This document shows positions 8,454 through 55,779 of a DNA stretch of 64,000 nucleotides, in pieces (within the stretch, counting starts at the first letter, position 1; every line of letters starts with the position of its first letter). The stretch comes from Alphaproteobacteria bacterium. GTDB taxonomy: Bacteria > Pseudomonadota > Alphaproteobacteria > Micavibrionales > UBA2020. The stretch lies in assembly GCA_004297545.1 (NCBI GenBank), contig SCTB01000050.1, forward strand, positions 5,138 through 69,137. The letters are read 5' to 3'. The notes under the pieces are model-generated. The model had not been told where the DNA came from, did no database searches, and worked only from the letters and a program-made list of their open reading frames with translations. Made by a program: the position numbers and the translations under genes.

Positions 8454-8467
8454 CTATCCCCTTAACC

Positions 8468-9409
8468 TTATGTGTGTATCGCCGAATTTTCGACGAGCCA
8501 CTCCACAAGATCCCCAAAAGTCATCCCCAAGTGCGCCGCCTGCTCCGGAACCAGCGAAGTAGGCGTCATTCCGGGCTGAGTATTCGTTTCGAGGTAAAAG
8601 AGCCCCGATACGCCCGGTTCGTTATCATTATACCTGAAATCGCTGCGCGTGACACCTGTGCAGCCTAATTTTTCGTGTGCGAAAGCGGCGATGCGCAAGG
8701 CTTCTTCGAAAACGTCCTTGCCGATCTCGGCGGGTATTATATGTGTCGACCCGCCCGCCGCGTATTTCGCCTCGTAGTTATAGAAATCCAGATTCGTTTT
8801 GATTTCCGTAACCGTCAGCGCTTTCGCCTTCTGGTCGCGGATACCCATGACGCCCACCGACAGCTCGCGGCCGGGGATGTATTTTTCGACCAGCGCATAG
8901 GGCCCATAGGTCCATTTGTCGAGGCCGAGCGGCGGCTTGTTGTCGCCCTGGCGCACGATGTGGACGCCCACGCTCGAACCCTCGTCGTTCGGCTTCACGA
9001 CATAAGGCGGCTTGAAGGGCTGCAGGCCTTTGCGCAGATCGTCGATATGCACCAGCTGGCCTTCGGGGCAGGGAACGCCCATCGGCTTCAGCACTTCCTT
9101 GGCCTTCTGCTTGTTCATGGCGAGCGCCGACGCAAGTGGGCCGGAATGGGTATAAGGTATATTGAGTATCTCGAGGAGCCCCTGCACGCAGCCGTCTTCG
9201 CCCCATTTGCCGTGCAACGCGTTGAAGACCGCATCGGGCGCGGGGGTAAGCTGTTTCACGAGGTCCATCAGGTCGCGTTTGACGTCTATCTCCTTGACGT
9301 CATAGCCTTTTTGGCGCAACGCCTTGGCGCATTCGGCGCCCGACGACAGCGACACGTCGCGTTCCGCCGACCATCCGCCCTTCAGTAATGCGACTTTTTT
9401 CCTGACCAT
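8468..9409 (-). CDS. ddl: D-alanine--D-alanine ligase
   Basis: Starts at the ATG at 9409 ([24 protein letters not shown]). The ORF-track extension to 9766 overlaps murB in another frame. ATP-grasp motifs are present. Confidence 0.95.
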
Positions 9410-9410
9410 C

Positions 9411-10400
9411 TTATGCGCTGTCCCGCTGCATGAATTCCAAAATATCACGGTCTTTATCAAGCGGAATGCCGATACGCTTGATTTCCCAGCGTAACATGAT
9501 GCCCGACTTTTCCGCAACACGTTTGCGCACTTCTTCGCCAAGGCGCTCGATATCCGCGGCCGTGGCGTCGCCGGTATTGATAAGAAAGTTGCAGTGCATC
9601 TGCGACACCTGAGCCCCGCCGACCTTGTGGCCGCGCAGACCCGCCTCGTCCACCAGCTGCCAGGCGCGCTTGCCGTCCGGGTTGGCGAAGGTCGATCCGC
9701 CGGTCTTGGTGCGGATGGGCTGGCTTTCGGCGCGCTTGTTCTTGATCTCATCCATGCGCCGTTCAATCTCTTTCACGTCGCCCTCGCGCCCCTTGAAACG
9801 CGCGCCCATGAAAATGACGTCTTCCGGCAGGTCGTTGTGGCGGTACGACAGGCCCATGCTTTCCGCCGTCATCTCTTTCACCGTGCCGTCGCGGAACAAA
9901 ACATCCGCCGTAATCAGAACATCCTTTGTCTCCCCGCCGTAAGCGCCGGCATTCATGCGCAGCGCGCCGCCGATGGTGCCGGGGATGCCGCTGAAAAATT
10001 CCAGTCCGGCGATGCCGTGCTTGGCCGCCGCGAGCGCCACGTTGATGTCGAGAGCGGCGGAACCTGCCGCCACATTCGTGCCCTGCGCCTCGATACTCGC
10101 GAATTCGCGGCCCATGCGGATCACCACACCCGGTACGCCGCCGTCGCGGATAATCATGTTCGACGCAACGCCCAGCACGGTGAGGGGAATATCACGCGGA
10201 CAGGCGCCGATAAAGTTTATAAGGTCCTCGCGGTCTTCGGGCTTGAACAGCACCTCCGCCGGGCCGCCGACGCCGAACCACGTCATATGCCCCAGCGGCG
10301 CATTGGGCGTCAGCCGCCCGCGCACTTTCGGCAAGCGGTCGAGAAGCGCCGTATTGAAGCGCGGGCCGTAAGGTTTCGCAATCGGGGACATCGCCGTCAT
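9411..10400 (-). CDS. murB: UDP-N-acetylenolpyruvoylglucosamine reductase MurB
   Basis: [13 protein letters not shown], a FAD-binding domain, and GSTFANP. The ATG at 10400 forms an ATGA overlap with the murC stop. Confidence 0.93.
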
Positions 10401-24837: not shown

Positions 24838-25212
24838 AAAACCAGAGAGCCTGTAAGCCGGGTTCTGTCCGTTCTTGCGAACGGGGCAATCATTCATCTG
24901 GGACGATGATCGCTCATCGCCTCATGCGACCTACCCGGAAAGCGGGACTGAAAATATTCCCTGCAACCGAAGTTGCGTCGCTTTCCCTATTTGGCCTTGC
25001 TCCCGGTGGGGTTTTCCGTGCCGTTCCTGTTGCCAGCAACGCGGTGCGCTCTTACCGCACCTTTTCACCCTTACCGCATTTCTGCGGCGGTATATTTTCT
25101 GTGGCACTTTCCCTGGGGTCGCCCCCGCCGGATGTTATCCGGCACCGTATTTTCATGGAGCCCGGACTTTCCTCACGCTTTAAGCATGCGATTACCCGGC
25201 TCTCTGGTTTGA
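24838..25212 (-). ncRNA. rnpB: RNase P RNA, bacterial type A
   Basis: The reverse complement contains GAGGAAAGTCCGGGCTCCA, GGTAAGGGTGAAAAGGTGCGGTAAGAGCGCACC, GAGCAAGGCCAAATAGGG, CAGATGAATGA and ACAGAACCCGGCTTA. P1 pairs accagagagcc with ggctctctggt. The ends are approximate. Confidence 0.93.
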
Positions 25213-43600: not shown

Positions 43601-44379
43601 TTACCGTCAAGCAGACCGCCCGTCCGCAGCCCGACGGCCTGAAGCCGCTCGGCAAAAGCAAGACGGTCGGTATTCCCGTATGGGCGCGCACGCTCCCCAA
43701 TGCCGACCAGACGCCGGTCACAAAATTCCGCCCCTCCGAATACAAAGGCTCCAACGACAACCACAGCGCGCCCTCGCCGCTTGAGGCCGAAAAGGAAACC
43801 TATTTCCGCAAGCTTGGCACCGTGGTGCACGAATTGTTCGAATTCCTGCCCTCCCTGCCGCCCGAAGATCGCGAAGCTGCCGCGAAGAAACACCTCGCGA
43901 AACCGGGCTGGAATTTAAGCGAAAAAGACCAGGAGATGGCGGTCAAGGAAGTGCTGAAAATCCTCGGCGATCCCGAATTCGGCGGCCTTTTCGGCCCCAA
44001 CAGCCGCGCCGAAGTCGGCATCACCGGCCTCTTCGACAAGGCCGGCGTCAAGCAGATGATGTCGGGCCAGATCGACCGCCTCGTCGTGGATGACAAGAGC
44101 GTGCTGATCATCGACTTCAAGAACAGCGTTCACATCCCGAAATCCGTCGACGATGTGCAATACAAATATATCGTGCAGATGGCGGCCTACCGCCTTGCGC
44201 TGCAGCAGATCTACCCGGACAAGGAAGTCAAATGCGCACTGCTCTACACGCGGCAGGCGAAGCTGGTGCCGCTCCCCGCAGCCAAGCTGGATGAGGCCCT
44301 GAAGAAAATCGACCTCAAGCCGCATGTCTCGAAAAAGCCCGATGTGAAGCCGTCCGCGCCCAAGGGACCGCAACCCTGA
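40630..44379 (+). CDS. addA: double-strand break repair helicase AddA (UvrD-family helicase plus nuclease)
   Basis: ASAGTGKTKVL (Walker A), HILVDEAQDTNP, VGDEKQSIFSFQRAD, TVHGAKGLEAP, YVAMTRA, and a C-terminal nuclease (IIDFKN). Confidence 0.95.
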   Translation: MAAKKPAPAKEEPDIEIKRVPEAAPPPLPKGKPDPNVVQRQASDPSASVWVTASAGTGKTKVLTDRVLRLMLNGAQPDQILCLTFTRAAASVMTNRIREELSAWATCDDDSLEERLTKLNGVKPDEDTTKRARQLFAEFLDAYGGMRVQTIHSFSQSLLRRFPIESGIPPYFDVMDEQTSSEMLREAQADVLRDVQRDPTTPLAKAVQMVTPEVPEDDFAAIIGELTYRRGQLFSVFGQNGGLEGTIANIYKYLAAPTGTDTATMMAQLNSNTGLNGTAPDIKALREAADTLAGGTPSDLEKAKIIKAWILHPAQREELFNDYVSVFLTQDGDMRKRLTTKATADAQDALEKEAKRLIEGIEAISTMNVARGTEALLRLTAAVLEKYTEKKRSLNLLDFDDLVYNANKMMSQDNAAGWVLQKLPGNLKHILVDEAQDTNPDQWELVAAVAKEFFTNPARKASKDNTIFVVGDEKQSIFSFQRADPREFNLHKQFFADLVKQAGGRWREVEMEIAFRSSPAITRAVDAVFANPEASDGLFFEGDNGEKQVRHNPFRRGQAGVVEVHPVIRAEKAEEPKPWSLPLQMEAKPDPSVEMADKIADQIKGWLDSGEQLQSRKRPINPSDIVILVRRRSEFVDNMVRALKKRDIPVAGADRMALREQIAVMDLVALGEVLLFPKDDYKLACVLKSPIIGLNDQQLENLAVGRSGDLWEALKTKAADKKADKIYHDAFEYLSGLQKNMNAERPYEFYSRVLMNPCPANAKSGLNAMYSRLGFEAEDPLVEFMNAVERFEKIHTPSLQGFLSWLDAGEAEVKREMNMNPETPRVHIMTVHGAKGLEAPIVFLPDTTGLPEDNARARPKFLWPAGDRKVPLWVPRADFESSVFVREREKAELERDREFRRLMYVAMTRAADRLYVYGAQNADKSSEKSWYSLIRKGLEENLKDEIETLKPGDDGSVKSLAASFRKKAAKATPAAKGEEETPRDDSTILRFTVKQTARPQPDGLKPLGKSKTVGIPVWARTLPNADQTPVTKFRPSEYKGSNDNHSAPSPLEAEKETYFRKLGTVVHELFEFLPSLPPEDREAAAKKHLAKPGWNLSEKDQEMAVKEVLKILGDPEFGGLFGPNSRAEVGITGLFDKAGVKQMMSGQIDRLVVDDKSVLIIDFKNSVHIPKSVDDVQYKYIVQMAAYRLALQQIYPDKEVKCALLYTRQAKLVPLPAAKLDEALKKIDLKPHVSKKPDVKPSAPKGPQP

Positions 44380-45248
44380 TGGCCGAAAAACTTGGATTTA
44401 TTGGACTGGGCATCATGGGCCTGCCGATGGCGCTGAACCTAAGGCGCGCCGGCTTCCCCCTGTCGGTTTACAACCGCACCAAAAGCCGCACCGTGCCGCT
44501 GAAGGATGCCGGGGCCGCGATCTGCACAAGTCCGAAAGACGTTGCCGCGAATTCCGATATCATCTTCATCTGCGTTTCCGACACGCCCGATGTGAACGAG
44601 GTTCTCTTCGGCAAGGAGGGCGTGGCGGCGGGGGCAAAGAAAGGCTCTGTCGTGGTCGATATGAGCACGATTTCCCCGGATTCGACGAGGCGTTTCGCCG
44701 CCGATCTCAAAATGGCGGGCATCGACATGCTCGATGCGCCCGTCTCGGGCGGCGAGGCGGGCGCCATCGCGGGCAGCCTTTCCATCATGGTCGGCGGGAA
44801 GGAAGAGGTGTGCCGCCGCGTGCTGCCCTTCTTCCAGAAGCTCGGCAAGAACATCGTGCTGGTCGGCGACCATGGCGCGGGACAGGTGGCCAAGGCCTGC
44901 AACCAGATCGTCATCGCCGTCACCATCGAGGCGGTGGGCGAGGCGCTGCTGCTCGCTGAAAAAAGCGGCGTCAGCGGCCACAAGGTGCGCGAGGCGCTGA
45001 TGGGCGGTTTTGCAGGTTCGAAGGTTCTGGAAGTGCACGGCAACCGCATGCTGAACGACGATTACAAGCCCGGTTTCAAGGCGAAGCTGCACCGCAAGGA
45101 CATGGGCATCGTGCTCGACACCGCCAAAAACCTGCAACTGCCGTTGCCCGCGACCACGCTGGTCACGCTGCATATGGACGAAGTCATCAAGTCCGGCGAC
45201 GGCGAGCTCGACTCCTCCGCCATCTTCAAGGCGCTCAGGAAGAACTAA
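44379..45248 (+). CDS. NAD(P)-dependent oxidoreductase, 3-hydroxyisobutyrate / 2-hydroxy-3-oxopropionate reductase family
   Basis: GFIGLGIMGLPMALNL Rossmann fold, DAPVSGG, and a beta-hydroxyacid dehydrogenase layout. Its start overlaps the addA stop as TGATG. Confidence 0.88.
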   Translation: MAEKLGFIGLGIMGLPMALNLRRAGFPLSVYNRTKSRTVPLKDAGAAICTSPKDVAANSDIIFICVSDTPDVNEVLFGKEGVAAGAKKGSVVVDMSTISPDSTRRFAADLKMAGIDMLDAPVSGGEAGAIAGSLSIMVGGKEEVCRRVLPFFQKLGKNIVLVGDHGAGQVAKACNQIVIAVTIEAVGEALLLAEKSGVSGHKVREALMGGFAGSKVLEVHGNRMLNDDYKPGFKAKLHRKDMGIVLDTAKNLQLPLPATTLVTLHMDEVIKSGDGELDSSAIFKALRKN

Positions 45249-45252
45249 TCTT

Positions 45253-45735
45253 CTATAATTTGGTCAGAGCCTCAAGCGCACCCTGCAGGATATGGGATGC
45301 CGCCAGCGCGTCGATAATTTCTTTCCGTTTTTTGTGCGGCATCTTGCGCTCTTCGGCCAGGAAGTCCTCGACCGCGAAACTGGACAGGCGTTCATCAAAA
45401 AATGTTATGACAGGCTCGAAGCCAAGCGTATCTTTTGCCTTGAGCAGGTTCGCGGCGAAATGCCGCACAGACTGCGCGCGCGGGCCCTCGCTGTCGTCCA
45501 TGTTCAAAGGCAGGCCGATGACGAAGCCGCGCACGCCATATTCGCGCGAAAGCGCCGAAAGCTCCTTAAGATTTTCCGTAAATGTCGTTCGGCGCAGGGT
45601 TTTGAACGGCGTCGCGATTGTGAGCTCGGGATTGGACAGGGCGAGGCCCAGCGTCTTCTCGCCGTGGTCCATGCCCAAAAGCCTTGATTTGAGAGGCAGG
45701 TGGCTTCTGAGTTCTTTAATTGCGACAATCGCCAT
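45253..45735 (-). CDS. ruvX: Holliday junction resolvase-like / pre-16S rRNA nuclease RuvX (YqgF)
   Basis: ATG at 45735. LGMDHGEKTLGLALS and GFVIGLPLNMDDSEGPRAQ are present. The rest of the 588-aa ORF-track entry is antisense to gatC/gatA. Confidence 0.9.
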   Translation of the reverse strand: MAIVAIKELRSHLPLKSRLLGMDHGEKTLGLALSNPELTIATPFKTLRRTTFTENLKELSALSREYGVRGFVIGLPLNMDDSEGPRAQSVRHFAANLLKAKDTLGFEPVITFFDERLSSFAVEDFLAEERKMPHKKRKEIIDALAASHILQGALEALTKL

Positions 45736-45795
45736 GCTAAGTTCTTTCCGCGACATTATATAAATAAAAGGCCGGATTTGAACAGGAAATAAGAG

Positions 45796-46083
45796 ATGTC
45801 CATCGACAAGAACACCGTCGGAAAAATCGCCCGCCTCGCCCGGATCAAAGTCTCGGAGGAGGAAAAGGAGGTGCTTTCCGCACAGCTCAGCAATATCCTC
45901 AAGATGATCGAGGAGCTCAACGCCGTCAACACCGATGGCGTGGAGCCGCTGACCTCGGTCGTGCAGATGCAGATGTATGAGCGCGAGGACAAGGTGACGG
46001 ACGGCGGCATCCCGGAGAAAATCCTCCAGAACGCGCCCGAGCAGACGGCCGGTTTCTTCGTCGTGCCCAAGGTGGTGGAGTAA
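45796..46083 (+). CDS. gatC: Asp-tRNA(Asn)/Glu-tRNA(Gln) amidotransferase subunit C
   Basis: 95 aa with IARLARIKVSEEE...FFVVPKVVE. It lies directly upstream of gatA. Confidence 0.95.
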   Translation: MSIDKNTVGKIARLARIKVSEEEKEVLSAQLSNILKMIEELNAVNTDGVEPLTSVVQMQMYEREDKVTDGGIPEKILQNAPEQTAGFFVVPKVVE

Positions 46084-46086
46084 GCC

Positions 46087-47571
46087 ATGTCGAAACTGAC
46101 CAACCTCACCATCGCGCAGGCGCTGGCTGGCCTCAAGAAAAAAGAATTCACGGCGGTCGAGCTGGTGGACGCGCATATCCATGCGGCTGAAGCCGCGCGC
46201 CTCCTCAACTGTTTTATCACCGAAACTTTCGACGCTGCGCGCGCGCAGGCGAAGGAATCCGACGCCCGCTACGCCAAGGGCAACCCGCTGCCCCTCGACG
46301 GCATTCCGATCGCCATGAAAGACCTCTTCTGCACCGAAGGCGTGCAGACGACGGCGGCAAGCGCCATCCTCAAGGGCTTCAAGCCTCCTTATGAATCGAC
46401 CGTTTCGGCGCAGATGAAGCGCGACGGCACAATCACACTGGGCAAGGCAAACCTCGACGAATTCGCGATGGGCTCGTCGAACACGACCAGCGCCTATGGC
46501 AACGTCATCAACCCCTGGAAGCGCAAGGGCGACAATAAAGACCTCGTTCCGGGCGGCTCCTCGGGCGGTTCGGCGGCTGCCGTCGCCGCGCGCATCGTGA
46601 TGGGCGCGACGGGAACGGATACTGGCGGTTCCATTCGCCAGCCGGCCGCCTTCTGCGGTATCACGGGCATCAAACCCACCTATGGCCGCTGTTCGCGCTG
46701 GGGCATCGTCGCTTTCGCTTCCTCGCTCGACCAGGCGGGACCCTTCGGCAAGACCAACGAAGACTGCGCGCTGCTGCTGCGCTCCATGGCCGGCTGGGAC
46801 CCGAAAGATTCCACCTCCGTCAACAAGCCCGTGCCGGATTACACGGCGACACTGGCACAGGGCGTCAAGGGGTTGAGAGTCGGCGTACCCAAGGAATACC
46901 GCGTGGAAGGCACCAGCCCCGAGATCATCGCGCTCTGGGAAAGGGGCGTGCAGATGATGAAGGACGCCGGCGCCCAGATCGTCGACGTGTCGCTGCCGCA
47001 TACCAAATACGCGCTGCATGCCTATTACGTGGTGGCGCCTGCCGAATGCTCCTCCAATCTCGCGCGCTATGACGGCGTGCGCTATGGCTTGAGGGTCGAG
47101 GGCGACAACCTGATCGACACCTACGAAAAGACGCGCCAGCAGGGCTTCGGCAAGGAAGTGAAGCGCCGCATCCTCATCGGCACCTATGTGCTCTCGGCGG
47201 GCTATTACGACGCCTATTACAACAAGGCGCGCCGCGTGCGCAAGCTCATCTGGAACGACTTTATCGAGGCGTATAAAAAGTGCGACGTGCTGCTCACGCC
47301 GACCGCGCCCACGCCGGCTTTCGCCATCGGCGAGAATACGCAGGATCCCATCACGATGTACCTGAACGACGTCTTCACCATCCCGGCCTCGATGGCGGGA
47401 ATGCCGGGGATGTCGGTGCCGGTGGGCTTAAGCGCTGACGGCCTGCCGCTCGGCCTGCAGCTGCTGGGCCGCCCGTTCGAAGAAGAGACATTGTTCCGCG
47501 CCGCGCAGGCGCTCGAAAACGCCGCCAATTTCAAGGCCGTGCCGCAGAATTTCGTCGGCAAGGCCGCATAG
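46087..47571 (+). CDS. gatA: Asp-tRNA(Asn)/Glu-tRNA(Gln) amidotransferase subunit A
   Basis: Amidase signature [13 protein letters not shown] and [11 protein letters not shown]. Confidence 0.97.
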
Positions 47572-47596
47572 GGATATTTTGAAAGGACATTCACCG

Positions 47597-47992
47597 ATGA
47601 AGATGAGCCCGAAATCCATTAAAGACCGTTTCAACAAACTCGCGAAGAAGGGCGGCGAAGCTGTTATCCGCGTCGAGGCAGAATGGCATGCCTCAGGTCT
47701 CGAAGACCGTTTTGGCCCCTGGCAGGACGGCAAGATGGCCATCTGCGTGTTCAACGGCGCGGTGCAGGAAAACACCCAGATCCTTTCCATCACGAATGTA
47801 ACGGAAGACAAGGACGGCCTGACCGTCAATGTGCGCACGGGTATTCTTGGCGGCCCGCCGTCGCGGCCCGGACACTTCTCTTGTCCTCAGGACGTCAAAT
47901 TCGTGGATGCAAGCGACAAGCCCGTCAAGTTTGAGTATGCGGGCATCGTCCAGCCGCTGCACAGGCAAACGCCCCCCTCAAGGAAACATTAA
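47597..47992 (+). CDS. hypothetical protein inserted between gatA and gatB
   Basis: The ATG at 47597 (MKMSPKS...) is preceded by AAAGGA. The ORF track starts at a TTG at 47579. I recognise no family. Confidence 0.6.
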   Translation: MKMSPKSIKDRFNKLAKKGGEAVIRVEAEWHASGLEDRFGPWQDGKMAICVFNGAVQENTQILSITNVTEDKDGLTVNVRTGILGGPPSRPGHFSCPQDVKFVDASDKPVKFEYAGIVQPLHRQTPPSRKH

Positions 47993-47995
47993 AAT

Positions 47996-49453
47996 ATGGC
48001 GCACGCACTTCTGAAAGGCGGAACAGGCGACTGGGAAATGGTCATCGGGCTCGAGGTCCATGCCCAGGTGCTGACGAAATCCAAGCTGTTCTCCGGCGCT
48101 TCCGCCGATTTCGGCGCCGCGCCCAACGCGCAGGTCAGCCCTGTCGACGCGGGCATGCCCGGCATGCTGCCAGTCATCAACAAGGAATGCGTGGAAAAAG
48201 CCGTGCGCACCGGCCTTGGCCTCAACGCCAAAATCAACCCGGTCTCGGTTTTCGAGCGCAAGAATTATTTCTACCCCGACCTGCCGCAGGGCTACCAGAT
48301 TTCGCAGTACCAGCACCCGATCGTGGGCAACGGAGAGGTCGAAATCGACCTGCCCGACGGCACGATCAAGAAGGTCGGCATCGAGCGCCTGCACCTGGAG
48401 CAGGACGCGGGAAAGTCGCTGCACGATCAGCACCCGACGAAAAGCTATGTCGACCTGAACCGCTCCGGCAACCCGCTCATGGAGATCGTTTCCAAGCCCG
48501 ACATGCGTTCGCCCGAAGAGGCAGGGGCCTATGTGACCAAGCTGCGCGCCATCGTGCGCTACCTCGGCACCTGCGACGGGAATATGGACGAAGGCTCCAT
48601 GCGCTGCGACGTGAATGTCTCCGTGCGCCGCCCCGGCGCGGAACTCGGCACGCGCTGCGAGATCAAGAACGTGAACTCCGTGCGCTTCGTCCAGCAGGCT
48701 ATCGAATACGAGGCGCGCCGCCAGATCGAGATTATCGAAGGCGGCGGCAAGATCCACCAGGAAACGCGGCTTTTCGACACGAAGCAGGGCGCCACGCGCT
48801 CCATGCGCTCCAAGGAAGACGCGCACGACTATCGCTATTTCCCGGACCCCGACCTGCTGCCGCTCACCGTGGATGCGGCTTTCGTCGAGAAGATCCGCAC
48901 TTCGATGCCGGAACTCCCCGATGCGATGAAAAAGCGCTTCATCGAAAAATTCGGCCTCTCTCCCTATGACGCCAGCGTGCTGGTGTCCGAAAAGGAGCGC
49001 GCCGAGTATTTTGAGACGGTTGCAAAAGGCCGCGACCCGAAGCTCGCCGCCAACTGGGTGCTTACCGAACTGCTGGGCGCGCTGCACAAGGCGGAAAAAG
49101 ACCTCAGCCAGAGCCCGGTGAAAGCCGAGCAGCTGGGCGGCCTTATCGCCCTTATTTCCGACAACACCATTTCGGGCCGCATCGCGAAGGAAGTATTCGC
49201 GGAAATGTTCGGCACCGGCAAGAACCCGGCCGACATCGTGAAGGACCGCGGCCTGCAGCAGGTGACGGATACGGGCGCTATCGAGAAAATCGTGGCCGAA
49301 GTCGTGAAGGAAAATCCCGACAAGGTCGCCGAATACAAGTCCGGCAAGGACAAGCTTTTCGGGTTCTTCGTGGGCCAGATCATGAAGAAGTCCGGCGGCA
49401 AGGCCAACCCGGGGATGGTCAACGATCTCCTCAAGAAAAAGCTGGAGGAATGA
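47996..49453 (+). CDS. gatB: Asp-tRNA(Asn)/Glu-tRNA(Gln) amidotransferase subunit B
   Basis: [33 protein letters not shown], and a C-terminal GatB_Yqey-like region. Confidence 0.97.
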
Positions 49454-49454
49454 C

Positions 49455-50222
49455 ATGCCGACGGTAGCGGGCCCCGCCCAGAACGTCATAACCGACATGA
49501 AAATATCCCCGGAAGGGGCGCGGCGCTTCGTCGTCAAGCTGTCATGGACGCCGCGCGAGCTGCCCAAGCTCAATGTCGATGTAGCCGCCCCCCCGAAGGA
49601 AGGGGATACAACCGGAAAAATCGTGTTTTTCATGATGAAGCCGTTCGACCTGCTGCGCATCCTCTTTCTGTCGATCGTCAAGCTCATGAGTTTCGGGATG
49701 TATGCGAGCAAGGCGCGCCGGGACGTCGATGCCGACGGGCGCGATACGACGGCCGATCAGTTCGACCTCGACCTCGACTGCTATATCTTCGACGGAAACA
49801 TGATGCTCAAGTGCGTTATCGGCACGGAAGGCGACGCGCTGCTGATCGAAGGCAGCAAAAAGGTCTACCATTCCGGCGACGACCAGAGCGGCATGGCGGG
49901 CGAGCATATTTTCGTCGAGACGCAGGGGCTTCCGGAAGGTTATCAGAACTTCTTCTTTGTGGTGCGCAGCGACTGCAAATACAGTCTGGACCAGTTCGTC
50001 AATCCCCTGATCCGCCTGGCTGACGGGAAAACGGACGAAAACGTCCTTCAGAACACGCTTATCCCGGCGGAGCAGATGATACCGAAAGCGTTCAACTACG
50101 CCTTCTGTCATGTCTTCCGCGACGGCGATGCCTGGCGTTTCCGCAACCTCGACGCCTATCAGGGCGACGCCGTGGAATGGGAAATGTTCCTTCCCTCTCT
50201 CGTCATCAAGCAGGCCGCCTGA
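49455..50222 (+). CDS. TerD-fold domain protein with a large hydrophobic insertion (paralog 1)
   Basis: FVVKLSW, DLDLDCYIFD, VYHSGDDQSG, FFFVVRS, IRLAD and FRDGDAWRFRNLD follow TerD-domain motif order. The ATG is 2 nt after the gatB stop, and the Shine-Dalgarno GGAGGA lies inside gatB. Confidence 0.75.
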   Translation: MPTVAGPAQNVITDMKISPEGARRFVVKLSWTPRELPKLNVDVAAPPKEGDTTGKIVFFMMKPFDLLRILFLSIVKLMSFGMYASKARRDVDADGRDTTADQFDLDLDCYIFDGNMMLKCVIGTEGDALLIEGSKKVYHSGDDQSGMAGEHIFVETQGLPEGYQNFFFVVRSDCKYSLDQFVNPLIRLADGKTDENVLQNTLIPAEQMIPKAFNYAFCHVFRDGDAWRFRNLDAYQGDAVEWEMFLPSLVIKQAA

Positions 50223-50224
50223 GC

Positions 50225-50995
50225 ATGGCGACTGTCAGCGGCCCCCGTAAGGGACTGACGTCGCCGCTGCCGGTCCCGGCCGGAGCAGCCGGGCGCTTCC
50301 TTGTCGGGTTGTCGTGGGCGCCCAAGGAAGAAGGGCCGAAAATCAGGCCGGCAATTCCCCCCTTAAAAGATGAACAAGGCCATTACGACACGTTCTATTT
50401 CTTCAAGCTCCCCTGGTTCCTCCTTCGCGCCGCCGTCATGGGCGTGGTTTCGATCGTAGCGCCGGCATTGCGCCGGCACGGCATCGGGGTGTCAAGGGAG
50501 GGGCGGCCGAAGAACCCCGATCCGCATGACCTGGATCTCTTCTGCTATATCCTGGACCATGATATGCAGGTGTTGCAGCTGGTCGGCCCGAAGAACGCCG
50601 AGCTGATCGATCCGGGAAAGAAGATCTATCACAGCGGCGAAAACCAGACCGGGCGCGACGCGACGGACGCCGAGCAGATTTTCCTCGAGACGCGCGGGCT
50701 TCCGCCCGAATACCACTACTTCTTTTTCGTCGTCAAAAGCGCCAACCGCAACACGATGGGAGATATACCAGACGGCAACGTGCGCCTTGCCGACAGCGCG
50801 GCGAATGCGAACCTCCTTCAGAACCTGATGACGGAGCGCGCGGCGCCGCCCGGCAATTCCTTCGGTTACGTTTTCTGCAGCGTTTTCCGCGACGGCGACG
50901 GGTGGTCGTTCCGCAACATCGATTCCTTCGCGGGCAAGGAAGTGGACTGGCACCTGCTGCTGCAGGCGCTGGACTTGCAGAAGGGGCTGGCATGA
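50225..50995 (+). CDS. TerD-fold domain protein with a large hydrophobic insertion (paralog 2)
   Basis: FLVGLSW, DLDLFCYILD, IYHSGENQTGRDATDAEQ, FFFVVKS, VRLAD, FRDGDGWSFRNID. The ATG at 50225 follows the paralog 1 stop by 2 nt. Confidence 0.75.
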   Translation: MATVSGPRKGLTSPLPVPAGAAGRFLVGLSWAPKEEGPKIRPAIPPLKDEQGHYDTFYFFKLPWFLLRAAVMGVVSIVAPALRRHGIGVSREGRPKNPDPHDLDLFCYILDHDMQVLQLVGPKNAELIDPGKKIYHSGENQTGRDATDAEQIFLETRGLPPEYHYFFFVVKSANRNTMGDIPDGNVRLADSAANANLLQNLMTERAAPPGNSFGYVFCSVFRDGDGWSFRNIDSFAGKEVDWHLLLQALDLQKGLA

Positions 50996-51669
50996 AGGGG
51001 CTTATCGTTTTCGACGTCGACGGCACGTTTCTCGATTCATATACCCTGTTCGAAAAGATCATCCTCGACTATTCGCGGGCGCAGGGGCTCCCCAAGCCGG
51101 CGCTGGAGGCTATCCGCTTCGGCTACAGCGACCCGCACAATCATGATTTCAAGTGGGGGGTCTCGCGAACCGACCAGGTGGAGCATCTTATTTCCATCTT
51201 CAACCTGATGGACGACTGGTCGATGTCGGGCGAGCACACGAAGACACCGGGGCTTTTCGAAGGAGTCGAGGACGCGCTCAAGCATCTGAAGGACCTTGGT
51301 CATACGCTGGCCATCGTGACTTCGAAGCCGGAGGCGCCGCTGCTGCATCTGCTTGAATACCACAAGGTTGACGGCCTGTTCTCCGCGCACCGCAACTGGG
51401 ACGACATCGCAAGGCGCGGGGAGAAGGAAAAACCGGAACCCGATATGCTGCTGTCCGTCATGCGCGACCTGAAATTTACGCCTGAGGAAACGATCATGGT
51501 GGGGGACACGGTGATGGACGTCAAAATGGGCCGCGCCGCGAAAACCCACACGATTGGCGTCGCCTGGGGCATGCACCCGGTCAGCTACCTGACCGAGGCC
51601 GGCGCGCATCATATCGTCGACACGCATTTCAAGCATGTCGTCTCGACCGTGAAAAAGATTTTCAGTTAG
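50992..51669 (+). CDS. HAD-superfamily phosphatase (subfamily IA, phosphoglycolate phosphatase-like)
   Basis: VFDVDGT (motif I), IVTSK (II), KPEPD (III), VGDTVMD (IV). The start forms an ATGA overlap with the upstream TerD-like gene. Confidence 0.88.
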   Translation: MKGLIVFDVDGTFLDSYTLFEKIILDYSRAQGLPKPALEAIRFGYSDPHNHDFKWGVSRTDQVEHLISIFNLMDDWSMSGEHTKTPGLFEGVEDALKHLKDLGHTLAIVTSKPEAPLLHLLEYHKVDGLFSAHRNWDDIARRGEKEKPEPDMLLSVMRDLKFTPEETIMVGDTVMDVKMGRAAKTHTIGVAWGMHPVSYLTEAGAHHIVDTHFKHVVSTVKKIFS

Positions 51670-52241
51670 GGCTTCGGTCCCTTGCCGCGATGGTGGAAGA
51701 ATTTGGCCGCATCGGCCGGTTTTACGGCGGCGCGGCAGCGCGGCAGGTCCTTTATCTCGTCGACAAAACTTTCGGGGCATAGCAGAGAAATAAACCCGCG
51801 GTCGCCGTCAACATGGCGCACCAGCACCTGGCCGCCGACGCCCTTTGCGAGCGCGAGGTCGAGGATGTCGTCCTGCAGGCGCCAGGTGGCGGAGGGGAGC
51901 GACGGGTCCCTGGCCTCCTGCGCCAGCACGCGCGTGAGGTCTTTCGGGTTGACGGGCCCGGCGTGTCCTGCGCGGAATGTGGGGGCGCCCTTCCATTCGC
52001 GGCTGTCGCCGTAAAGGGGCAGGGCTTTCACCTTGTCTATGAATTCGGGGGTGCATTCCAGCAGCAGGCGCGGCGCGCCTTCCACCATGTTGTCCACATA
52101 GCGGTGGAAATACACCTCCTCGCCTTCCTGCTGCGCGAGGTCGAATATCTGGGCGCGCAGCTCGATATTCTTTTTGACGGTCTGCTCGAAATTTCCGGAT
52201 TTGGCGTAATCCAGTTCGACGGTGTAAACAACGGCGGGCAT
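51666..52241 (-). CDS. hypothetical protein, two copies of the small repeated domain (family member D4)
   Basis: 191 aa. It has LLLECTPEFIDKVKALP in the first half and ISLLCPESFVDEIKDLP in the second. AAAGGA lies before the ATG. Its stop overlaps the HAD stop by 4 nt. Confidence 0.7.
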   Translation of the reverse strand: MPAVVYTVELDYAKSGNFEQTVKKNIELRAQIFDLAQQEGEEVYFHRYVDNMVEGAPRLLLECTPEFIDKVKALPLYGDSREWKGAPTFRAGHAGPVNPKDLTRVLAQEARDPSLPSATWRLQDDILDLALAKGVGGQVLVRHVDGDRGFISLLCPESFVDEIKDLPRCRAAVKPADAAKFFHHRGKGPKP

Positions 52242-52256
52242 GAAAATCCTTTAAGG

Positions 52257-52604
52257 TTATCTGTTCGTGGCGGGGGAGCGGTGGCGGGTTTCCGTACGCT
52301 GCTGCGGCACGATATCGGGGCGCTCCTCTGTCTTTTCGACGAAGGGCAGCGCGCGCACCCTGTCCGCGACGGAATCGGAGCACTCAAGCAGGGTCTTGCG
52401 CTCGTTGGCGATCAGCGTGCTGCCGCCGACTTCGTGCAGGAGGGCGTTCTGGATGAGGAATTCCAGCAGGTTTTTGTGGCAGTCGCGCGCGTGGCGCATG
52501 AAGCGGTGAAAGCCGAGGCTTTTGCTGAGGTCGTTTTCTTCGACGAGGTTATCGGGCAAGGCGTAGGTGATCTCGAAAGTCTTCATCACAGGCGGCGGGT
52601 TCAA
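52257..52604 (-). CDS. hypothetical protein, small repeated-domain family (D3)
   Basis: FEITYAL...TLLECSDSVADRVRALPFVEKTEE. The TTG start at 52604 has GGGAG 6 nt upstream. An alternative ATG lies at 52586. Confidence 0.65.
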   Translation of the reverse strand: MNPPPVMKTFEITYALPDNLVEENDLSKSLGFHRFMRHARDCHKNLLEFLIQNALLHEVGGSTLIANERKTLLECSDSVADRVRALPFVEKTEERPDIVPQQRTETRHRSPATNR

Positions 52605-52622
52605 TTCTTTCTCCCTGAAAGG

Positions 52623-52958
52623 TTACCGGTATCTGCGGCCCGAGGTCCGTTTCCCGGCAGGAACGGCTTTGCGGTCGGAAGGCTTCTCGACATACTGCAC
52701 GCCCTCGAGCTTCTTCACCTTGGCGGCGAATTTCTCGGGCGCGTTCATGAAGAAGATGCCAAGCTTGTTCAGCGACCCGTCATCGAAGGAGACCTTGACC
52801 TTGGAAGAGCAGCCTTCCTCTTCCGCCAGTTCCTTGATGCGCTTTGCAGCGGCCTCCATGTCCTCGGTGAAGTCGGTCTTGCGCGAGTACTTCGCGCGCA
52901 CGCTGACCGAGTACAGGAACGTCTTGGCTTTTTCGTTGAAATCCTTCTTTGGCGGCAT
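52623..52958 (-). CDS. hypothetical protein, small repeated-domain family (D2)
   Basis: FLYSVSV...GIFFMNAPEKFAAKVKKLEGVQYVEKP. ATG with an AGAGGT Shine-Dalgarno and strongly GC-rich third positions. Confidence 0.7.
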   Translation of the reverse strand: MPPKKDFNEKAKTFLYSVSVRAKYSRKTDFTEDMEAAAKRIKELAEEEGCSSKVKVSFDDGSLNKLGIFFMNAPEKFAAKVKKLEGVQYVEKPSDRKAVPAGKRTSGRRYR

Positions 52959-52967
52959 GATGTACCT

Positions 52968-53270
52968 CTAAAGCCTGAATTTCGGGGGAAGGTAACGGGC
53001 CTTGTCTTCCTCGATGGAGGAAACGAAGCTTTGCCCCTTCAGCTTTTCGGCGACTTCATCGGTGCACACAAGCATTAGGCCAATCTGGTGAGGCACGGGC
53101 ACGATCGCCTTGACCTGGCCTTCCAGGCCTTCGCGCGCCAGGAATTCACGCAGCTCGCGCGTCGCCAGTTTGCGCGCATCGTCCATCTGCTGCATGATCT
53201 CAAGCGGCGTCGTGCACCAGCCGCTGGAGGGCTTCAGGTTCACGGGATAGGTCAGTTTAAACTGCTTCAT
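52968..53270 (-). CDS. hypothetical protein, small repeated-domain family (D1)
   Basis: FKLTYPV...GLMLVCTDEVAEKLKGQSFVSSIEED. I chose the ATG at 53270. The ORF track starts at a TTG at 53291. Confidence 0.65.
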   Translation of the reverse strand: MKQFKLTYPVNLKPSSGWCTTPLEIMQQMDDARKLATRELREFLAREGLEGQVKAIVPVPHQIGLMLVCTDEVAEKLKGQSFVSSIEEDKARYLPPKFRL

Positions 53271-53358
53271 CGGGCGTATATTTTTCCGCAATCTTTGTGG
53301 TGAGCCGCCGGTATCAGACGCGACTCGAATCTGCTCAAAGGTTTAAAAAGAATGCCAT

Positions 53359-53530: not shown

Positions 53531-54700
53531 ATGGCACTGCAATATGACATGATCATTTTCGGCGGCGGCATCGCGGGGCTCTGGACCGCCAATACCCTCA
53601 AGCGCGCGGGTTACAACGTCATCCTCATTGAAAAAGACAAGCTCGGGGCAGGGCAGACGCTTGCTTCGCAGGGAATGATTCATGGCGGGCAGAAATACGT
53701 ACTGCAGGGGGCGGTCACCAAGCATGCCTCCTCTATCGCGAAAATGCCCGAGCGGTGGGAATCCAGCTTCGAAGGCTGGGGCGAGATCGACCTGACGGCG
53801 ACGAAATTCCTCAGCGACACGCAGGTGATGTGGCCCGCGGGCGGGGCGCTGTCCGGCACCGCCGTGCTGGGCGCCGCGAAGCTCGTTAATGCAGCCACGA
53901 AAAAGCTCAAGAAAGACGATTATCCTGACGTCCTGAAGGAGCGGCCAAAATTCAAGGGGCCGGTCTATGCGCTGCCTGAAAAGGTGGTTGAGGTGCGCTC
54001 GCTGGTGCAGGCGCTGGCGTCGCACCTGAAAGGCAGGTTGTTTACGGGCGAGGTGTCAGAAATTCTGCCCGACGGGCAGGCGGCGGTGTCCGGCATTGTC
54101 ATGCGGGCGCAGCTGATTATCTTCATGGCGGGCACGGGGAACGAACAGGCGCTCAAGCTGCTGAAGGTGCAGCAGCAGCATACGCAGCGCCGCCCCTTAC
54201 GGCAGGTCATGGTGCGCACCATGCCCTATGCGCTTTACGGCCATGGCATCGTGAGCGCGCCTAAGCCGCGCGTGACGGTGACAAGCCATCCGGCGGCAGG
54301 CGGCGGGTATATCTGGTATCTGGGCGGCGCCATCGCGGAGGAAAGCGCCGGCATGGAGGAGGGCGCCGCGCTGGAATTCGCGCGCAAGGAGTTGCAGGAT
54401 ATTTTCCCCGACATCGACTGGGGCAACCGCGAATGGGCGACCTGGTACGGCGACCGCGCGGAACCGTTCGATGAAAAAGGCGACCTGCCGCCCGGCCCCT
54501 TCATCCACCAGCGCGGGCGCATCCTGCTGGCCTGGCCCGCCAAGCTCACCTTCGCGCCAGCGCTCTCCGACCATATTTTCAATTGGCTGAAGGACAAGGA
54601 GATCCAGCCGGTCCCGCGGAAGCTGAAGGCGCCCAACCTCCCCGTTGCGAGCATTGGCTCCTATCCGTGGGAAACGGCTTCATGGCGAAAATTACCTTAA
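53531..54700 (+). CDS. FAD-dependent oxidoreductase (DAO / GlpD-like superfamily)
   Basis: N-terminal dinucleotide fold YDMIIFGGGIAGLWTA, and SQGMIHGGQKY resembling the GlpD IHGGLRY motif. 389 aa. Confidence 0.8.
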   Translation: MALQYDMIIFGGGIAGLWTANTLKRAGYNVILIEKDKLGAGQTLASQGMIHGGQKYVLQGAVTKHASSIAKMPERWESSFEGWGEIDLTATKFLSDTQVMWPAGGALSGTAVLGAAKLVNAATKKLKKDDYPDVLKERPKFKGPVYALPEKVVEVRSLVQALASHLKGRLFTGEVSEILPDGQAAVSGIVMRAQLIIFMAGTGNEQALKLLKVQQQHTQRRPLRQVMVRTMPYALYGHGIVSAPKPRVTVTSHPAAGGGYIWYLGGAIAEESAGMEEGAALEFARKELQDIFPDIDWGNREWATWYGDRAEPFDEKGDLPPGPFIHQRGRILLAWPAKLTFAPALSDHIFNWLKDKEIQPVPRKLKAPNLPVASIGSYPWETASWRKLP

Positions 54701-54781: not shown

Positions 54782-55621
54782 ATGATCAACCGTCCGTCGC
54801 CCATATCTGCGCCGCGTCACGCTTCTTCCTTTCCACTGTCGTGGAAGGACGTGAGCCCGCTTGGGCTCGGCACAGTCAAGTTCGGCCGCAATACCGGCGT
54901 GAAATATCCGGGCGGCGAGGGTTTCGCGCTGCCTTCCGATGCCGAAGTAGAGGCGCTGCTTGACCTCACGCTGGAGTGCGGCATCAACCTGATCGACACG
55001 GCGCCCGCCTATGGCATCGCCGAGGAAAGATTGGGCAGCCTGCTGGGCGCGCGGCGCGAAAAGTTTTTCATCGTGACCAAGACCGGCGAGGAATTCCGGG
55101 ACGGCAGGTCCGATTACATCTTCACCGCCACGCATACCCGCATGAGCGTCGAGCGCAGCCTTAAGCGGCTGAGGACGGAATATATAGACTGCGTGCTGGT
55201 GCACAGCAACCGCGACGACGCCAGGGTGCTGACCCAGACGCCCGTGCTTGAAACGCTGGCGGCGCTGAAAAGCGAAGGAAAAATCGGCAGTTTCGGCGCC
55301 TCGACCTATACGCTCGAGGGCGGCCGGGCGGCGGTCGACCTGTCCGATGCCGTCATGGTCGCCTATAACAAGGGCTATACCGACGAGCTTCCTGTCATCG
55401 AATACGCCCGCGAAAAAGGCCGCGCCGTGCTGGTCAAGAAAGGCCTTGCCTCCGGCCATATCGGGGGCCTGGGGGATGTGGGCGACAATATCCGCTTTAT
55501 CGCCGGCACGCCCGGCGTGACCTGCATGGTCTTCGGATCCTTGAGGGCTGACAATATATTGGCCAACGCGCGGGCGCTGGGCGGCGGAAGCCTTGAAAAT
55601 CAAGGAAAAAACACCCAATAA
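54782..55621 (+). CDS. aldo/keto reductase family oxidoreductase
   Basis: LGLGTVKFGR, INLIDTAPAYG, FIVTKTG, and CVLVHS in typical AKR order. Confidence 0.85.
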   Translation: MINRPSPISAPRHASSFPLSWKDVSPLGLGTVKFGRNTGVKYPGGEGFALPSDAEVEALLDLTLECGINLIDTAPAYGIAEERLGSLLGARREKFFIVTKTGEEFRDGRSDYIFTATHTRMSVERSLKRLRTEYIDCVLVHSNRDDARVLTQTPVLETLAALKSEGKIGSFGASTYTLEGGRAAVDLSDAVMVAYNKGYTDELPVIEYAREKGRAVLVKKGLASGHIGGLGDVGDNIRFIAGTPGVTCMVFGSLRADNILANARALGGGSLENQGKNTQ

Positions 55622-55685: not shown

Positions 55686-55779
55686 GGAGACGTGGCCGAG
55701 TGGCTGAAGGCGGCGGTTTGCTAAACCGTTATACTGGTGTTAGCCGGTATCCAGGGTTCGAATCCCTGCGTCTCCGCCA
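55686..55779 (+). tRNA. tRNA-Ser (anticodon GCU), CCA encoded
   Basis: Acceptor stem ggagacg/cgtctcc, anticodon loop TTGCTAA, a long variable arm, T-loop GGTTCGAATCC, and a 3' GCCA. Confidence 0.93.

Follow-up and report, generated by a model that had tools for sequence, protein, structure and literature searches.

TerD-like genes joined to the end of the gatCAB operon in Micavibrio-like alphaproteobacteria

In a Micavibrio-like alphaproteobacterium we find two TerD-like genes and a HAD phosphatase gene at the end of the gatCAB operon, and comparison of gene order across relatives indicates that the stable conserved link is that between gatB and TerD and not that between TerD and HAD. This link appears to be undescribed. 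In the literature library searched, no paper paired TerD with gatCAB or TerD with Micavibrio, which agrees with the suggestion in a preliminary description of this DNA that a tRNA-amidotransferase operon is a new context for Ter proteins. TerD is a widespread family of Ca2+-binding proteins, and we know of no defined biochemical function for it more than 30 years after the ter operon was discovered; a fixed genomic partner, gatB, that belongs to an essential and well-understood enzyme complex provides a handle on that function. In the likeliest reading of the sequences and structural models, the TerD pair would be a membrane-associated module with a single Ca2+-binding site in each protein, expressed from the gatCAB promoter.

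Results

Three genes follow gatB in a complete gatCAB operon

The window, by which we mean the whole 64-kb stretch of DNA analyzed, contains gatC, gatA, and gatB in complete order, as identified with Pfam and NCBIfam HMMs. The ruvX gene (45256 to 45756, minus strand; RuvX, 123 bits) is divergent from gatC (45796 to 46083, plus strand; Pfam GatC, 74 bits), the first gene of the operon, which is followed on the plus strand by gatA (46087 to 47571; Pfam Amidase, 493 bits; 94% identical to gatA of relative L001) and gatB (47996 to 49453; NCBIfam GatB equivalog, 851 bits against a cutoff of 628), with its TGA stop at 49451 to 49453. A divergent ruvX followed by gatC, gatA, and gatB in that order is likewise found in the canonical bacterial gatCAB operon, to which the window adds an ORF between gatA and gatB and three genes at the 3' end. 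These three genes, all on the plus strand, encode TerD-like paralog 1 (49455 to 50222; 255 aa; stop TGA at 50220 to 50222), TerD-like paralog 2 (50225 to 50995; 256 aa), and a HAD-IA phosphatase (50992 to 51669; 225 aa). A convergent 191-aa ORF from the ORF list (51666 to 52241, minus strand), whose stop overlaps that of the HAD gene, forms the 3' boundary of this plus-strand gene string, and the same small ORFs in convergent orientation are present in relatives.

The junctions between these genes are of the operon type. A 1-nt gap separates the gatB stop from the ATG of paralog 1 at 49455, and a Shine-Dalgarno-like GGAGGA (49444 to 49449, plus strand) lies within the last gatB codons, 5 nt 5' of that ATG, in a context (CTGGAGGAxTAA) that recurs in most close relatives. 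The stop of paralog 1 is 2 nt from the ATG of paralog 2 at 50225, which we favored over an ATG at 50177 because most homologues begin at the corresponding M-x-T-V-x-GP position, and the paralog 2 stop and HAD start overlap by 4 nt (ATGA, 50992 to 50995). A sequence scan of the junctions from gatB through TerD1 and TerD2 to HAD detected no promoter- or terminator-like sites of note. Given such tight junctions with no intervening promoter or terminator, the gatCAB transcript is the only plausible transcript. The spacing, the internal Shine-Dalgarno sequence, and the lack of internal signals together argue that TerD1, TerD2, and HAD form a translationally coupled extension of gatCAB. On rereading of the sequence, all the coordinates and junctions of gatB and the three downstream genes in the preliminary description held, as did its view that the three are packed onto the end of the operon.

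The ORF in the gatA-gatB slot (47579 to 47992, plus strand), which had been overlooked in that description, encodes 137 aa, and its translation probably begins at the ATG that yields MKMSPK. It had no Pfam, NCBIfam, or PADLOC match. An orthologue of 67% identity occupies the same slot in L001; elsewhere among the relatives the slot is empty or holds one or two ~220-aa signal-peptide proteins, a variation in content that indicates tolerance of the operon for unrelated inserts. Kinship between the 137-aa ORF and the ~220-aa slot proteins of distant relatives was ruled out by hhalign (probability of 0.2).

Two further candidates were rejected. A horizontally transferred island was discarded on the grounds that the GC content across TerD1, TerD2, and HAD (0.57 to 0.62) is similar to that of the flanks and that relatives share the synteny over more than 8 kb in both directions. 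A defense system was discarded because PADLOC returned no match for either TerD or the 137-aa ORF and only a weak, generic "Hydrolase" match for the HAD.

Both paralogs are predicted to adopt the TerD fold

The motifs LSW, DLDLxCYI, YHSG[DE][DN]Q[ST]G, FFFVV[RK]S, [IV]RLAD, and FRDGDxWxFRN, on which the preliminary assignment to TerD had been based, were present in both translations in the order given there. Both proteins scored above the Pfam TerD (PF02342) cutoff of 25.3 bits, with 26.8 bits for paralog 1 and 45.7 bits for paralog 2; paralog 1 is marginal by this measure yet shares 37% identity with paralog 2 (E = 4e-56), which in turn matched the sequences of the solved structures 3ibz and 2kxt with an E value of about 1e-5. 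AlphaFold models, for which the input alignment consisted of the window proteins and search-derived homologues, had a pLDDT of 85.5 and a pTM of 0.79 for paralog 1 and a pLDDT of 76.2 and a pTM of 0.70 for paralog 2. When the models were compared with solved TerD structures by Foldseek, both paralogs matched with a probability of 1.0 and target-normalized TM-scores of 0.62 to 0.73; for paralog 1, the matches were 9a6r_B, 3ibz, 2qng, 2qz7, and 2kxt, with scores of 0.66 to 0.73. The resemblance of both proteins to TerD is far more than chance would give, and the modeled structures confirm the TerD beta-sandwich fold that had been proposed for the two ~255-aa proteins.

This beta-sandwich is common to the window paralogs and to TerD, TerE, and TerZ of the Klebsiella terZABCDE(F) operon (PDB 2kxt), as are the landmarks GLxW, DLD, HxG(D/E)(N/D)xxG...E, and R, at 21 to 25% identity. 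Unlike the enterobacterial proteins, the window paralogs have a C-terminal helix, and whereas the enterobacterial ter genes lie in a stress or mobile island, those of the window lie within a housekeeping operon. The best structural matches were to the stand-alone TerD proteins of Gram-positive bacteria, namely, Streptomyces SCO (3ibz and 2qz7), SAV2460 (2qng), and SCP2 (9a6r). These resemble the window proteins in being multi-paralog, cytoplasmic, and free of a signal peptide, but they have neither a helical insertion nor linkage to gatCAB.

Because 9a6r, a model of the GlpD-SCP2 complex, was the top Foldseek match of both paralogs and a DAO-family flavoenzyme is encoded 2 kb downstream, a link to GlpD was considered and rejected. 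The flavoenzyme is PA4991-like (5ez7, 4e-84), with similarity to GlpD confined to the FAD-binding N terminus; therefore, the GlpD-SCP2 pairing has no counterpart in the window.

A hydrophobic helix is inserted in both paralogs

Neither window paralog is a compact TerD domain of ~190 aa free of large insertions. After the GLSW strand and before the DLDL motif, both have an insertion of 60 to 70 residues with a hydrophobic helix of 28 to 35 residues, which had escaped notice in the preliminary description and which alignment showed to be absent from Klebsiella TerD, TerE, and TerZ. In the AlphaFold models, the helix spans residues 52 to 86 of paralog 1 (49608 to 49712, plus strand) and residues 58 to 85 of paralog 2 (50396 to 50479, plus strand), with Kyte-Doolittle maxima over 19 residues of 1.77 and 1.92, respectively. 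The corresponding values for the nearer homologues (P0001 to P0022) ranged from 0.79 to 2.21 and were mostly above 1.2; some distant members, such as the gatB-linked P0092, have inserts resembling transmembrane segments (2.2 to 2.7), and the insertion of some relatives lacks hydrophobicity altogether (<0.6). The helix includes charged residues (K, D, and R) and, instead of contacting a membrane, could pack on the protein itself or mediate oligomerization. The insertion is a new structural element that varies among relatives from amphipathic to clearly transmembrane-like.

One of the two Ca2+ sites is retained

The Ca2+ ligands of Klebsiella TerD were taken from the ligand list in PMC8779313 (after Pan et al. 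2011), in which residues 40, 41, 42, 78, 79, and 89 are assigned to Ca1 and residues 29, 82, 84, and 88 to Ca2. When mapped by alignment, the six Ca1 ligands (DLDDNE in Klebsiella) were kept as DLDDDE in paralog 1 and DLDENE in paralog 2, and they were retained in 35 of 35 aligned relatives. At Ca2, Asp88, the only side-chain ligand of this second site, was lost from both paralogs, by a 4-residue deletion in paralog 1 and by replacement with Ala in paralog 2, and Gly84 was replaced by Ala and Asp, respectively. Most relatives retain the WGGD of Ca2. The acidic Ca-binding sites singled out for comparison in the preliminary description thus stand in part, with the predicted Ca1 ligands intact and the acidic ligand of Ca2 gone from both proteins, a loss that description had overlooked. 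This pattern suggests that each paralog probably still binds one Ca2+ or similar divalent cation. With Ca1 always kept and Ca2 lost twice in one lineage, the family amounts to a natural experiment on the two sites.

The HAD phosphatase differs from that of a Klebsiella ter island

The third gene product matched Pfam HAD_2 at 99 bits, as expected from its earlier assignment to the HAD superfamily, and Hydrolase at 78.5 bits, and the catalytic motifs DVDGT, TSKP, K-PEPD, and GDTVMD are readable in its translation. Its nearest solved structures were AlnB (4ex6, 8e-16) and a putative PGP (2hi0). It aligned over its full length with the NCBIfam equivalogs for PpaX and phosphoglycolate phosphatase but scored far under every cutoff (83.3 against 225, 85.1 against 218, and 69.5 against 180 bits). 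By its sequence, including the full-length alignment, the HAD_2 domain, and the intact catalytic motifs, it is a HAD-IA phosphatase of the PGP/PpaX/AlnB-like group. Orthology with the HAD-IB hydrolase (PF12710 type) of a Klebsiella ter island was rejected (BLASTP E = 0.069, with only the DxDGT motif shared), and no similarity was found to the 257-aa hypothetical protein of the Klebsiella ATP-grasp/PRTase cluster; the ter-island comparison covered one Klebsiella island.

In the ter (terZABCDE) system, TerB and TerC, and usually TerA, TerZ, and a VWA protein (TerF/TerY), are encoded together. None of these was detected in the window, in agreement with the earlier statement that no terB, terC, terZ, or terA is nearby: tblastn with Klebsiella ter-island proteins across the 64 kb yielded no match at E < 0.1 other than the two TerD paralogs and no homologue of TerB, TerC, TerA, TerZ, VWA, ATP-grasp, PRTase, or HpcH. 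A Pfam search of the neighbors of gatB-TerD in relatives also found no ter partner and no member of the ATP-grasp, PRTase, or HpcH families. The ter-associated biosynthetic module of Anantharaman, Iyer and Aravind (2012) reportedly combines ATP-grasp, PRTase, a HAD-type phosphoesterase, and an HpcH/CitE-like lyase. The window resembles it in having a TerD-family gene beside a HAD-superfamily phosphatase gene and differs in having no other module enzymes and, judged against the one Klebsiella island, a HAD from a different branch of the superfamily.

The distribution of the HAD gene is restricted. It follows the TerD gene(s), with overlapping or nearly overlapping junctions, throughout the subclade with a gatB identity to the window of 78% or more, and in many of these genomes a Sulfotransfer_1 gene lies exactly between TerD2 and HAD; this gene is patchy and is missing from the window. 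To our knowledge, a sulfotransferase is not part of the described ter-associated biosynthetic module. In more distant relatives, Rce1-like, DUF4177, or M17-peptidase genes take the place of HAD. With the HAD limited to one subclade and unlike that of the Klebsiella ter island compared, and with the partner enzymes missing, the earlier proposal that TerD-TerD-HAD is a minimal ter module is unsupported.

In its fuller form, this idea is that TerD-TerD-HAD, together with the sulfotransferase of relatives, is a minimal small-molecule module akin to the ter-associated one, in which the HAD (and the sulfotransferase) would make or trim a metabolite bearing phosphate or sulfate and TerD would bind or sense it. 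We consider this unlikely, while granting it a real chance of being correct. The unfailing presence of HAD after TerD in the subclade, under strong constraint (dN/dS of 0.09 to 0.12), is consistent with such a module, as is the exact placement of the sulfotransferase gene, but gene order in the subclade is kept for many kilobases on both sides of the locus, and the adjacency of TerD and HAD therefore weighs little. The closest solved HAD, AlnB, is a phosphatase of a ribose-phosphate-derived natural-product intermediate, and a link between TerD and a biosynthetic module with a diffusible product is proposed in the ter literature (PMC9240799, after Anantharaman et al. 2012). On the other side are the failure of the window HAD to match its counterpart in the Klebsiella island, the ATP-grasp, PRTase, HpcH, TerB, and TerC missing from the 64 kb, the patchiness of the sulfotransferase, and the lack of a HAD gene beside TerD in the other, more distant half of the lineage.

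The gatB-TerD link is conserved across the lineage

The searches placed the insertion-bearing TerD family only in MAGs of Micavibrio-like alphaproteobacteria and on one unplaced contig. In about 25 distinct species-level genomes, the start of an insertion-bearing TerD lies -1 to +6 nt after the gatB stop; all 37 genomic relatives were either gatB linked or on contigs too short to tell, and the most distant genomes still have a ~200-aa TerD within 130 to 1,650 nt of gatB. The adjacency spans an order-level divergence, over which gatB falls to 67 to 70% identity and TerD to ~25 to 30%. The gatB-terD-terD-HAD arrangement for which the preliminary description had proposed a synteny survey was thus conserved in its gatB-TerD part, in the roughly 25 genomes, whereas its HAD part was confined to the one subclade.

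Such persistence raises the question of whether the TerD-like proteins act as partners of GatCAB, for example by tethering the amidotransferase or transamidosome to the membrane, by regulating it there, or by coupling its activity to Ca2+ or metal status, with translational coupling to gatB setting the stoichiometry. TerD stays beside gatB throughout the sampled lineage while the genes downstream vary, and this, together with the near-abutting junctions and the absence of any demonstrably unlinked genome among the 37 relatives, is what such a partnership would produce. However, a promoterless gene embedded in an essential operon cannot easily move elsewhere; therefore, adjacency can outlast the absence of a common function. 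The unrelated, lineage-specific ORFs in the gatA-gatB slot favor a permissive operon over a functional unit, the evolutionary rate of TerD is two to three times that of GatB, one related TerD that has the insertion (P0128) adjoins atpH/atpA and not gatB, and the literature search gave no precedent for a TerD-GatCAB link. On balance, we regard a partnership as rather improbable. A more specific version, in which a TerD branch with a membrane-seeking helix became a GatCAB accessory in Micavibrio-like predators and localizes or regulates the enzyme according to Ca2+ or metal status, would explain why TerD stayed joined to the gatB stop while the downstream genes changed; we judge it distinctly improbable.

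The three genes are under purifying selection

Reading frames were intact in 37 species-level genomes, and dN/dS ranged from 0.09 to 0.29 over two genome pairs (window/L001 and L002/L004), with values against L001 of 0.22 for paralog 1, 0.29 for paralog 2, and 0.12 for HAD. These values indicate that TerD1, TerD2, and HAD are under purifying selection; absence from all relatives together with inactivating mutations, which the preliminary description had named as counting against a real module, was not what we found. The idea that the three are decaying or miscalled ORFs without a current function, which could draw on the bare margin of paralog 1 over the Pfam threshold and on the degraded acidic Ca2 loop in the lineage, is effectively refuted by the intact frames, the dN/dS values, the confident AlphaFold folds, and the intact HAD catalytic motifs, and we assign it almost no probability.

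Discussion

We favor the explanation that the gatCAB operon of this Micavibrio-like (predatory) alphaproteobacterium has been extended, in a lineage-specific way, by the TerD-TerD-HAD genes, which would have a TerD-type role in envelope or ion stress and not in tRNA amidation, and we put the chance that this explanation is right as a whole at about even. Under this explanation, the TerD genes and HAD would ride the constitutive promoter of the essential gatCAB operon. The inserted helix is predicted, most likely, to park the TerD proteins on the cytoplasmic face of the inner membrane, where TerD1 and TerD2 might form a putative heteromer, and each would bind a single Ca2+ or similar divalent cation via Ca1. 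The HAD is a putative phosphatase of a small phosphorylated metabolite, and many relatives also encode a PAPS-type sulfotransferase between TerD2 and HAD. Counting against this favored explanation are the charged residues of the helix, the insertions without hydrophobicity in some relatives, and the persistence of gatB-TerD despite the changing downstream genes, which exceeds what a pure passenger model predicts.

Either outcome for the link to GatCAB would be informative. A functional link would be the first tie between TerD proteins and translation; otherwise, the locus would still illustrate how genes specific to a lineage of reduced, predatory bacteria can settle in an essential operon.

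Two predicted TerD-fold proteins are encoded directly behind gatB

In the window, gatC (45796-46083, +; Pfam GatC, 74 bits), gatA (46087-47571, +; Amidase, 493 bits), an open reading frame (ORF) of 137 aa without annotation (47579-47992, +), set off from gatA and gatB by 7 and 3 nt, and gatB (47996-49453, +; NCBIfam GatB equivalog, 851 bits, cutoff 628) are followed by TerD-like 1 (paralog 1; 49455-50222, +), TerD-like 2 (paralog 2; 50225-50995, +) and a HAD phosphatase gene (50992-51669, +). The junctions reported in the preliminary description were exact: the gatB TGA stop occupies 49451-49453, GGAGGA (49444-49449, +) lies inside gatB upstream of the ATG at 49455, 2 nt separate the paralogs, and an ATGA overlap joins the end of paralog 2 to the HAD gene. 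The ruvX gene lies divergently upstream of gatC, and the HAD stop is overlapped by a convergent ORF. GC content was even across the locus, and a consensus scan of the junctions detected neither promoter- nor terminator-like sites. The gatB and TerD genes are predicted to be cotranscribed and translationally coupled.

The paralogs (37% identity, E = 4e-56) scored 26.8 and 45.7 bits against Pfam TerD (cutoff, 25.3 bits). AlphaFold models had mean pLDDT values of 85.5 (pTM 0.79) for paralog 1 and 76.2 (pTM 0.70) for paralog 2, and the top Foldseek matches of both were TerD structures only (9a6r_B, 3ibz, 2kxt, 2qz7, and 2qng), all with probability 1.0 and with target-normalized TM-scores of 0.66 to 0.73 and 0.62 to 0.72, respectively. 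The sequence of paralog 2 also matched the solved TerD structures 3ibz and 2kxt (E of ~1e-5). These data indicate that both ~255-aa proteins are TerD-fold proteins, the assignment previously made from sequence motifs.

The Klebsiella TerD ligands listed in PMC8779313, citing Pan et al. 2011, are residues 40, 41, 42, 78, 79, and 89 for the first Ca2+ site (Ca1) and 29, 82, 84, and 88 for the second (Ca2). We mapped these positions onto 35 family members by alignment. Ca1, DLDDNE in Klebsiella TerD, reads DLDDDE in paralog 1 and DLDENE in paralog 2 and is retained in all relatives. Ca2 is WGGD in Klebsiella TerD and in most relatives, WGA- in paralog 1, where a 4-residue deletion common to the close relative L001 takes out Asp88, and WGDA in paralog 2, where Asp88 is replaced by Ala, a change common to the loci L001, L002, and L004. 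Each window protein thus appears to retain one predicted cation site.

Pairwise dN/dS values for gatB, TerD1, TerD2, and HAD were 0.12, 0.22, 0.29, and 0.12 between the window and L001 and 0.05, 0.17, 0.09, and 0.09 between L002 and L004. The TerD proteins evolve fastest, and the ratios indicate that all four are functional genes under purifying selection.

A helical insertion distinguishes both paralogs from Klebsiella TerD

We aligned both paralogs and their relatives with Klebsiella TerD, TerE, and TerZ. Unlike the Klebsiella proteins, the window paralogs carry a 60- to 70-residue insertion between the GLSW strand and the DLDL motif, modeled as a single long helix (residues 52 to 86 in paralog 1 and 58 to 85 in paralog 2). 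Its Kyte-Doolittle 19-residue maxima, 1.77 and 1.92, exceed the classical threshold, and it also holds a few charged residues. Because the helix interrupts a single beta-sandwich in the models, it is unlikely to truly span the membrane and more plausibly mediates oligomerization or acts as a membrane anchor of the in-plane or re-entrant type. The insertion is plastic in the wider family, being TM-like in some members (Kyte-Doolittle values of 2.2 to 2.7) and not hydrophobic in others. We propose that the proteins would associate peripherally with the membrane through this helix and that the paralogs possibly form a heteromer.

Insertion-bearing TerD proteins form a lineage-specific subfamily linked to gatB

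A word-indexed search recovered only 23 homologues, from 89% down to 35% identity. Searching 1.84 billion cluster representatives exhaustively with a profile returned 64 clusters at E ≤ 1e-30, about 40 of which matched over the full length, insertion included. Scanning GTDB species genomes yielded 37 loci, labeled Micavibrio sp., Alphaproteobacteria bacterium, or Bdellovibrionales/Pseudobdellovibrionaceae, apart from one Patescibacteria.

In all of these relatives whose sequence extends upstream of TerD, gatCAB is found there. The start codon of the insertion-bearing TerD lies -1 to +6 nt from the gatB stop in ~25 distinct genomes and 24 nt after it in one; the most distant genomes have a shorter, more canonical TerD of ~200 aa (Pfam, 81 bits) 130 to 1650 nt downstream of gatB. 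Insertion-bearing TerD is an order-level, lineage-specific subfamily fixed directly behind gatB. A still more distant insertion-bearing homologue, P0128 (L053, 6001-6777), has no gatB link. In a neighbor-joining tree, single-copy genomes grouped with paralog 1 and paralog 2 formed a sister clade, which places the duplication inside the lineage.

The insert of P0128 is TM-like, and its gene adjoins atpH/atpA and a hexapeptide-repeat transferase gene. Distant relatives (L035/L036/L037/L040 [~9170-9800] and L043/L047/L051 [~7650-8600]) carry a second, more canonical TerD of ~200 aa with GLGWDPNE and GDGDDE. It follows gatB or the insertion-bearing TerD at a distance of a few hundred nucleotides and is preceded by conserved ~450-nt gaps. 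The contig labeled "Patescibacteria group bacterium" (L018, DASPMW010000137.1) has the order ruvX-gatCAB-TerD-TerD-sulfotransferase-HAD and a gatB 84% identical to that of the window; since these features match the other loci, it is probably mis-binned.

The genes flanking gatB-TerD are variable

Surveying relatives for the gatB-terD-terD-HAD order showed the gatB-TerD link to be conserved, but HAD behind the TerD gene(s) was confined to one subclade, in which gatB shares at least 78% identity with the window gene. Within that subclade, the gatB-linked TerD is accompanied by a HAD-IA phosphatase. The window enzyme has AlnB and putative phosphoglycolate phosphatases as its nearest solved relatives and scores well under every NCBIfam equivalog cutoff. 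In more distant genomes the gene after TerD instead encodes an M17 aminopeptidase, an Rce1-like protease, or a DUF4177 protein. In many genomes of the HAD-bearing subclade, a PAPS-type sulfotransferase gene (Sulfotransfer_1, 60 bits; L002, 8747-9565) is inserted precisely between HAD and the preceding TerD gene, whether TerD2 or a lone copy; this insert also occurs in L004, L009, L012, L019, L020, L022, L024, and L032 and is absent from the window and L001.

The gatA/gatB slot holds the 137-aa ORF, which has no family match, in the window and its closest relatives only (67% identity) and is empty in others. In distant Micavibrio-like genomes it holds one or two ~220-aa signal-peptide proteins, which proved unrelated to the 137-aa ORF on comparison. 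Because unrelated ORFs fill this slot across the lineage, the junction looks like a recurrent insertion point.

TerD, HAD, and, where present, the sulfotransferase could make up a metabolite module, in keeping with a looser idea of "TerD plus small-molecule enzymes," but we consider this doubtful. That the TerD-like proteins are true functional partners of GatCAB is improbable. The persistence of gatB-TerD adjacency while downstream genes change speaks for such a partnership; the operon's tolerance of unrelated inserts and the difficulty of relocating a TerD gene without its own promoter favor TerD as a passenger. In our preferred reading, the TerD-HAD genes would have a role separate from tRNA amidation.

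For comparison we used one Klebsiella ter island, comprising terZABCDE, VWA, ATP-grasp, PRTase, HpcH, and StiP genes, and a HAD family hydrolase gene. Only its TerD, TerE, and TerX proteins matched the window at E < 0.1, in agreement with the reported lack of terB, terC, terZ, and terA nearby, whereas the VWA, ATP-grasp, PRTase, HpcH, and StiP proteins had no homologues there at that threshold. The window HAD resembled the island HAD only in the DxDGT motif (E = 0.069) and showed no similarity to a hypothetical protein inside the island's biosynthetic cluster. The earlier suggestion of a minimal ter biosynthetic module is therefore not supported, as ATP-grasp, PRTase, and HpcH matches are missing and the HAD is unlike that of the island.

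A literature search found no paper mentioning TerD with gatCAB, consistent with the view that this Ter context is undescribed, or TerD with Micavibrio; literature pairing Micavibrio with a tellur- word was unrelated to the topic. The TerD family itself is known; the subfamily architecture and its conserved genomic context are new. The locus is a useful entry point for studying this enigmatic family rather than a demonstrated new mechanism.

Other features of the window

Four tandem small ORFs (191, 115, 111, and 107 aa; 51666-53291, -) run toward HAD from the opposite strand. They lack Pfam and NCBIfam matches but resemble one another weakly (E = 3e-8 and 3e-4), the 191-aa ORF apparently containing two copies, and have the common motif ..LL.C..EF..K.K.LP. 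Relatives keep two to four such ORFs at the same position. A PA4991-like FAD flavoenzyme gene (53531-54700, +; PDB 5ez7, 4e-84) is followed by an aldo/keto reductase gene (54782-55621, +); all close relatives conserve this pair on the downstream side of the locus. Just upstream of ruvX/gatCAB lies a gene for 2-hydroxy-3-oxopropionate (tartronate semialdehyde) reductase (44379-45248, +; TIGR01505, 345.8 bits, cutoff 340.75), an enzyme of glyoxylate/glycolate metabolism; its proximity to a phosphoglycolate-phosphatase-like HAD is probably a coincidence. The window also contains a class A RNase P RNA (24838-25207, -; 329 bits) and tRNA-Ser(GCT) (55686-55779, +), and its GC content drops from ~0.60 to 0.46-0.52 downstream of ~55600.
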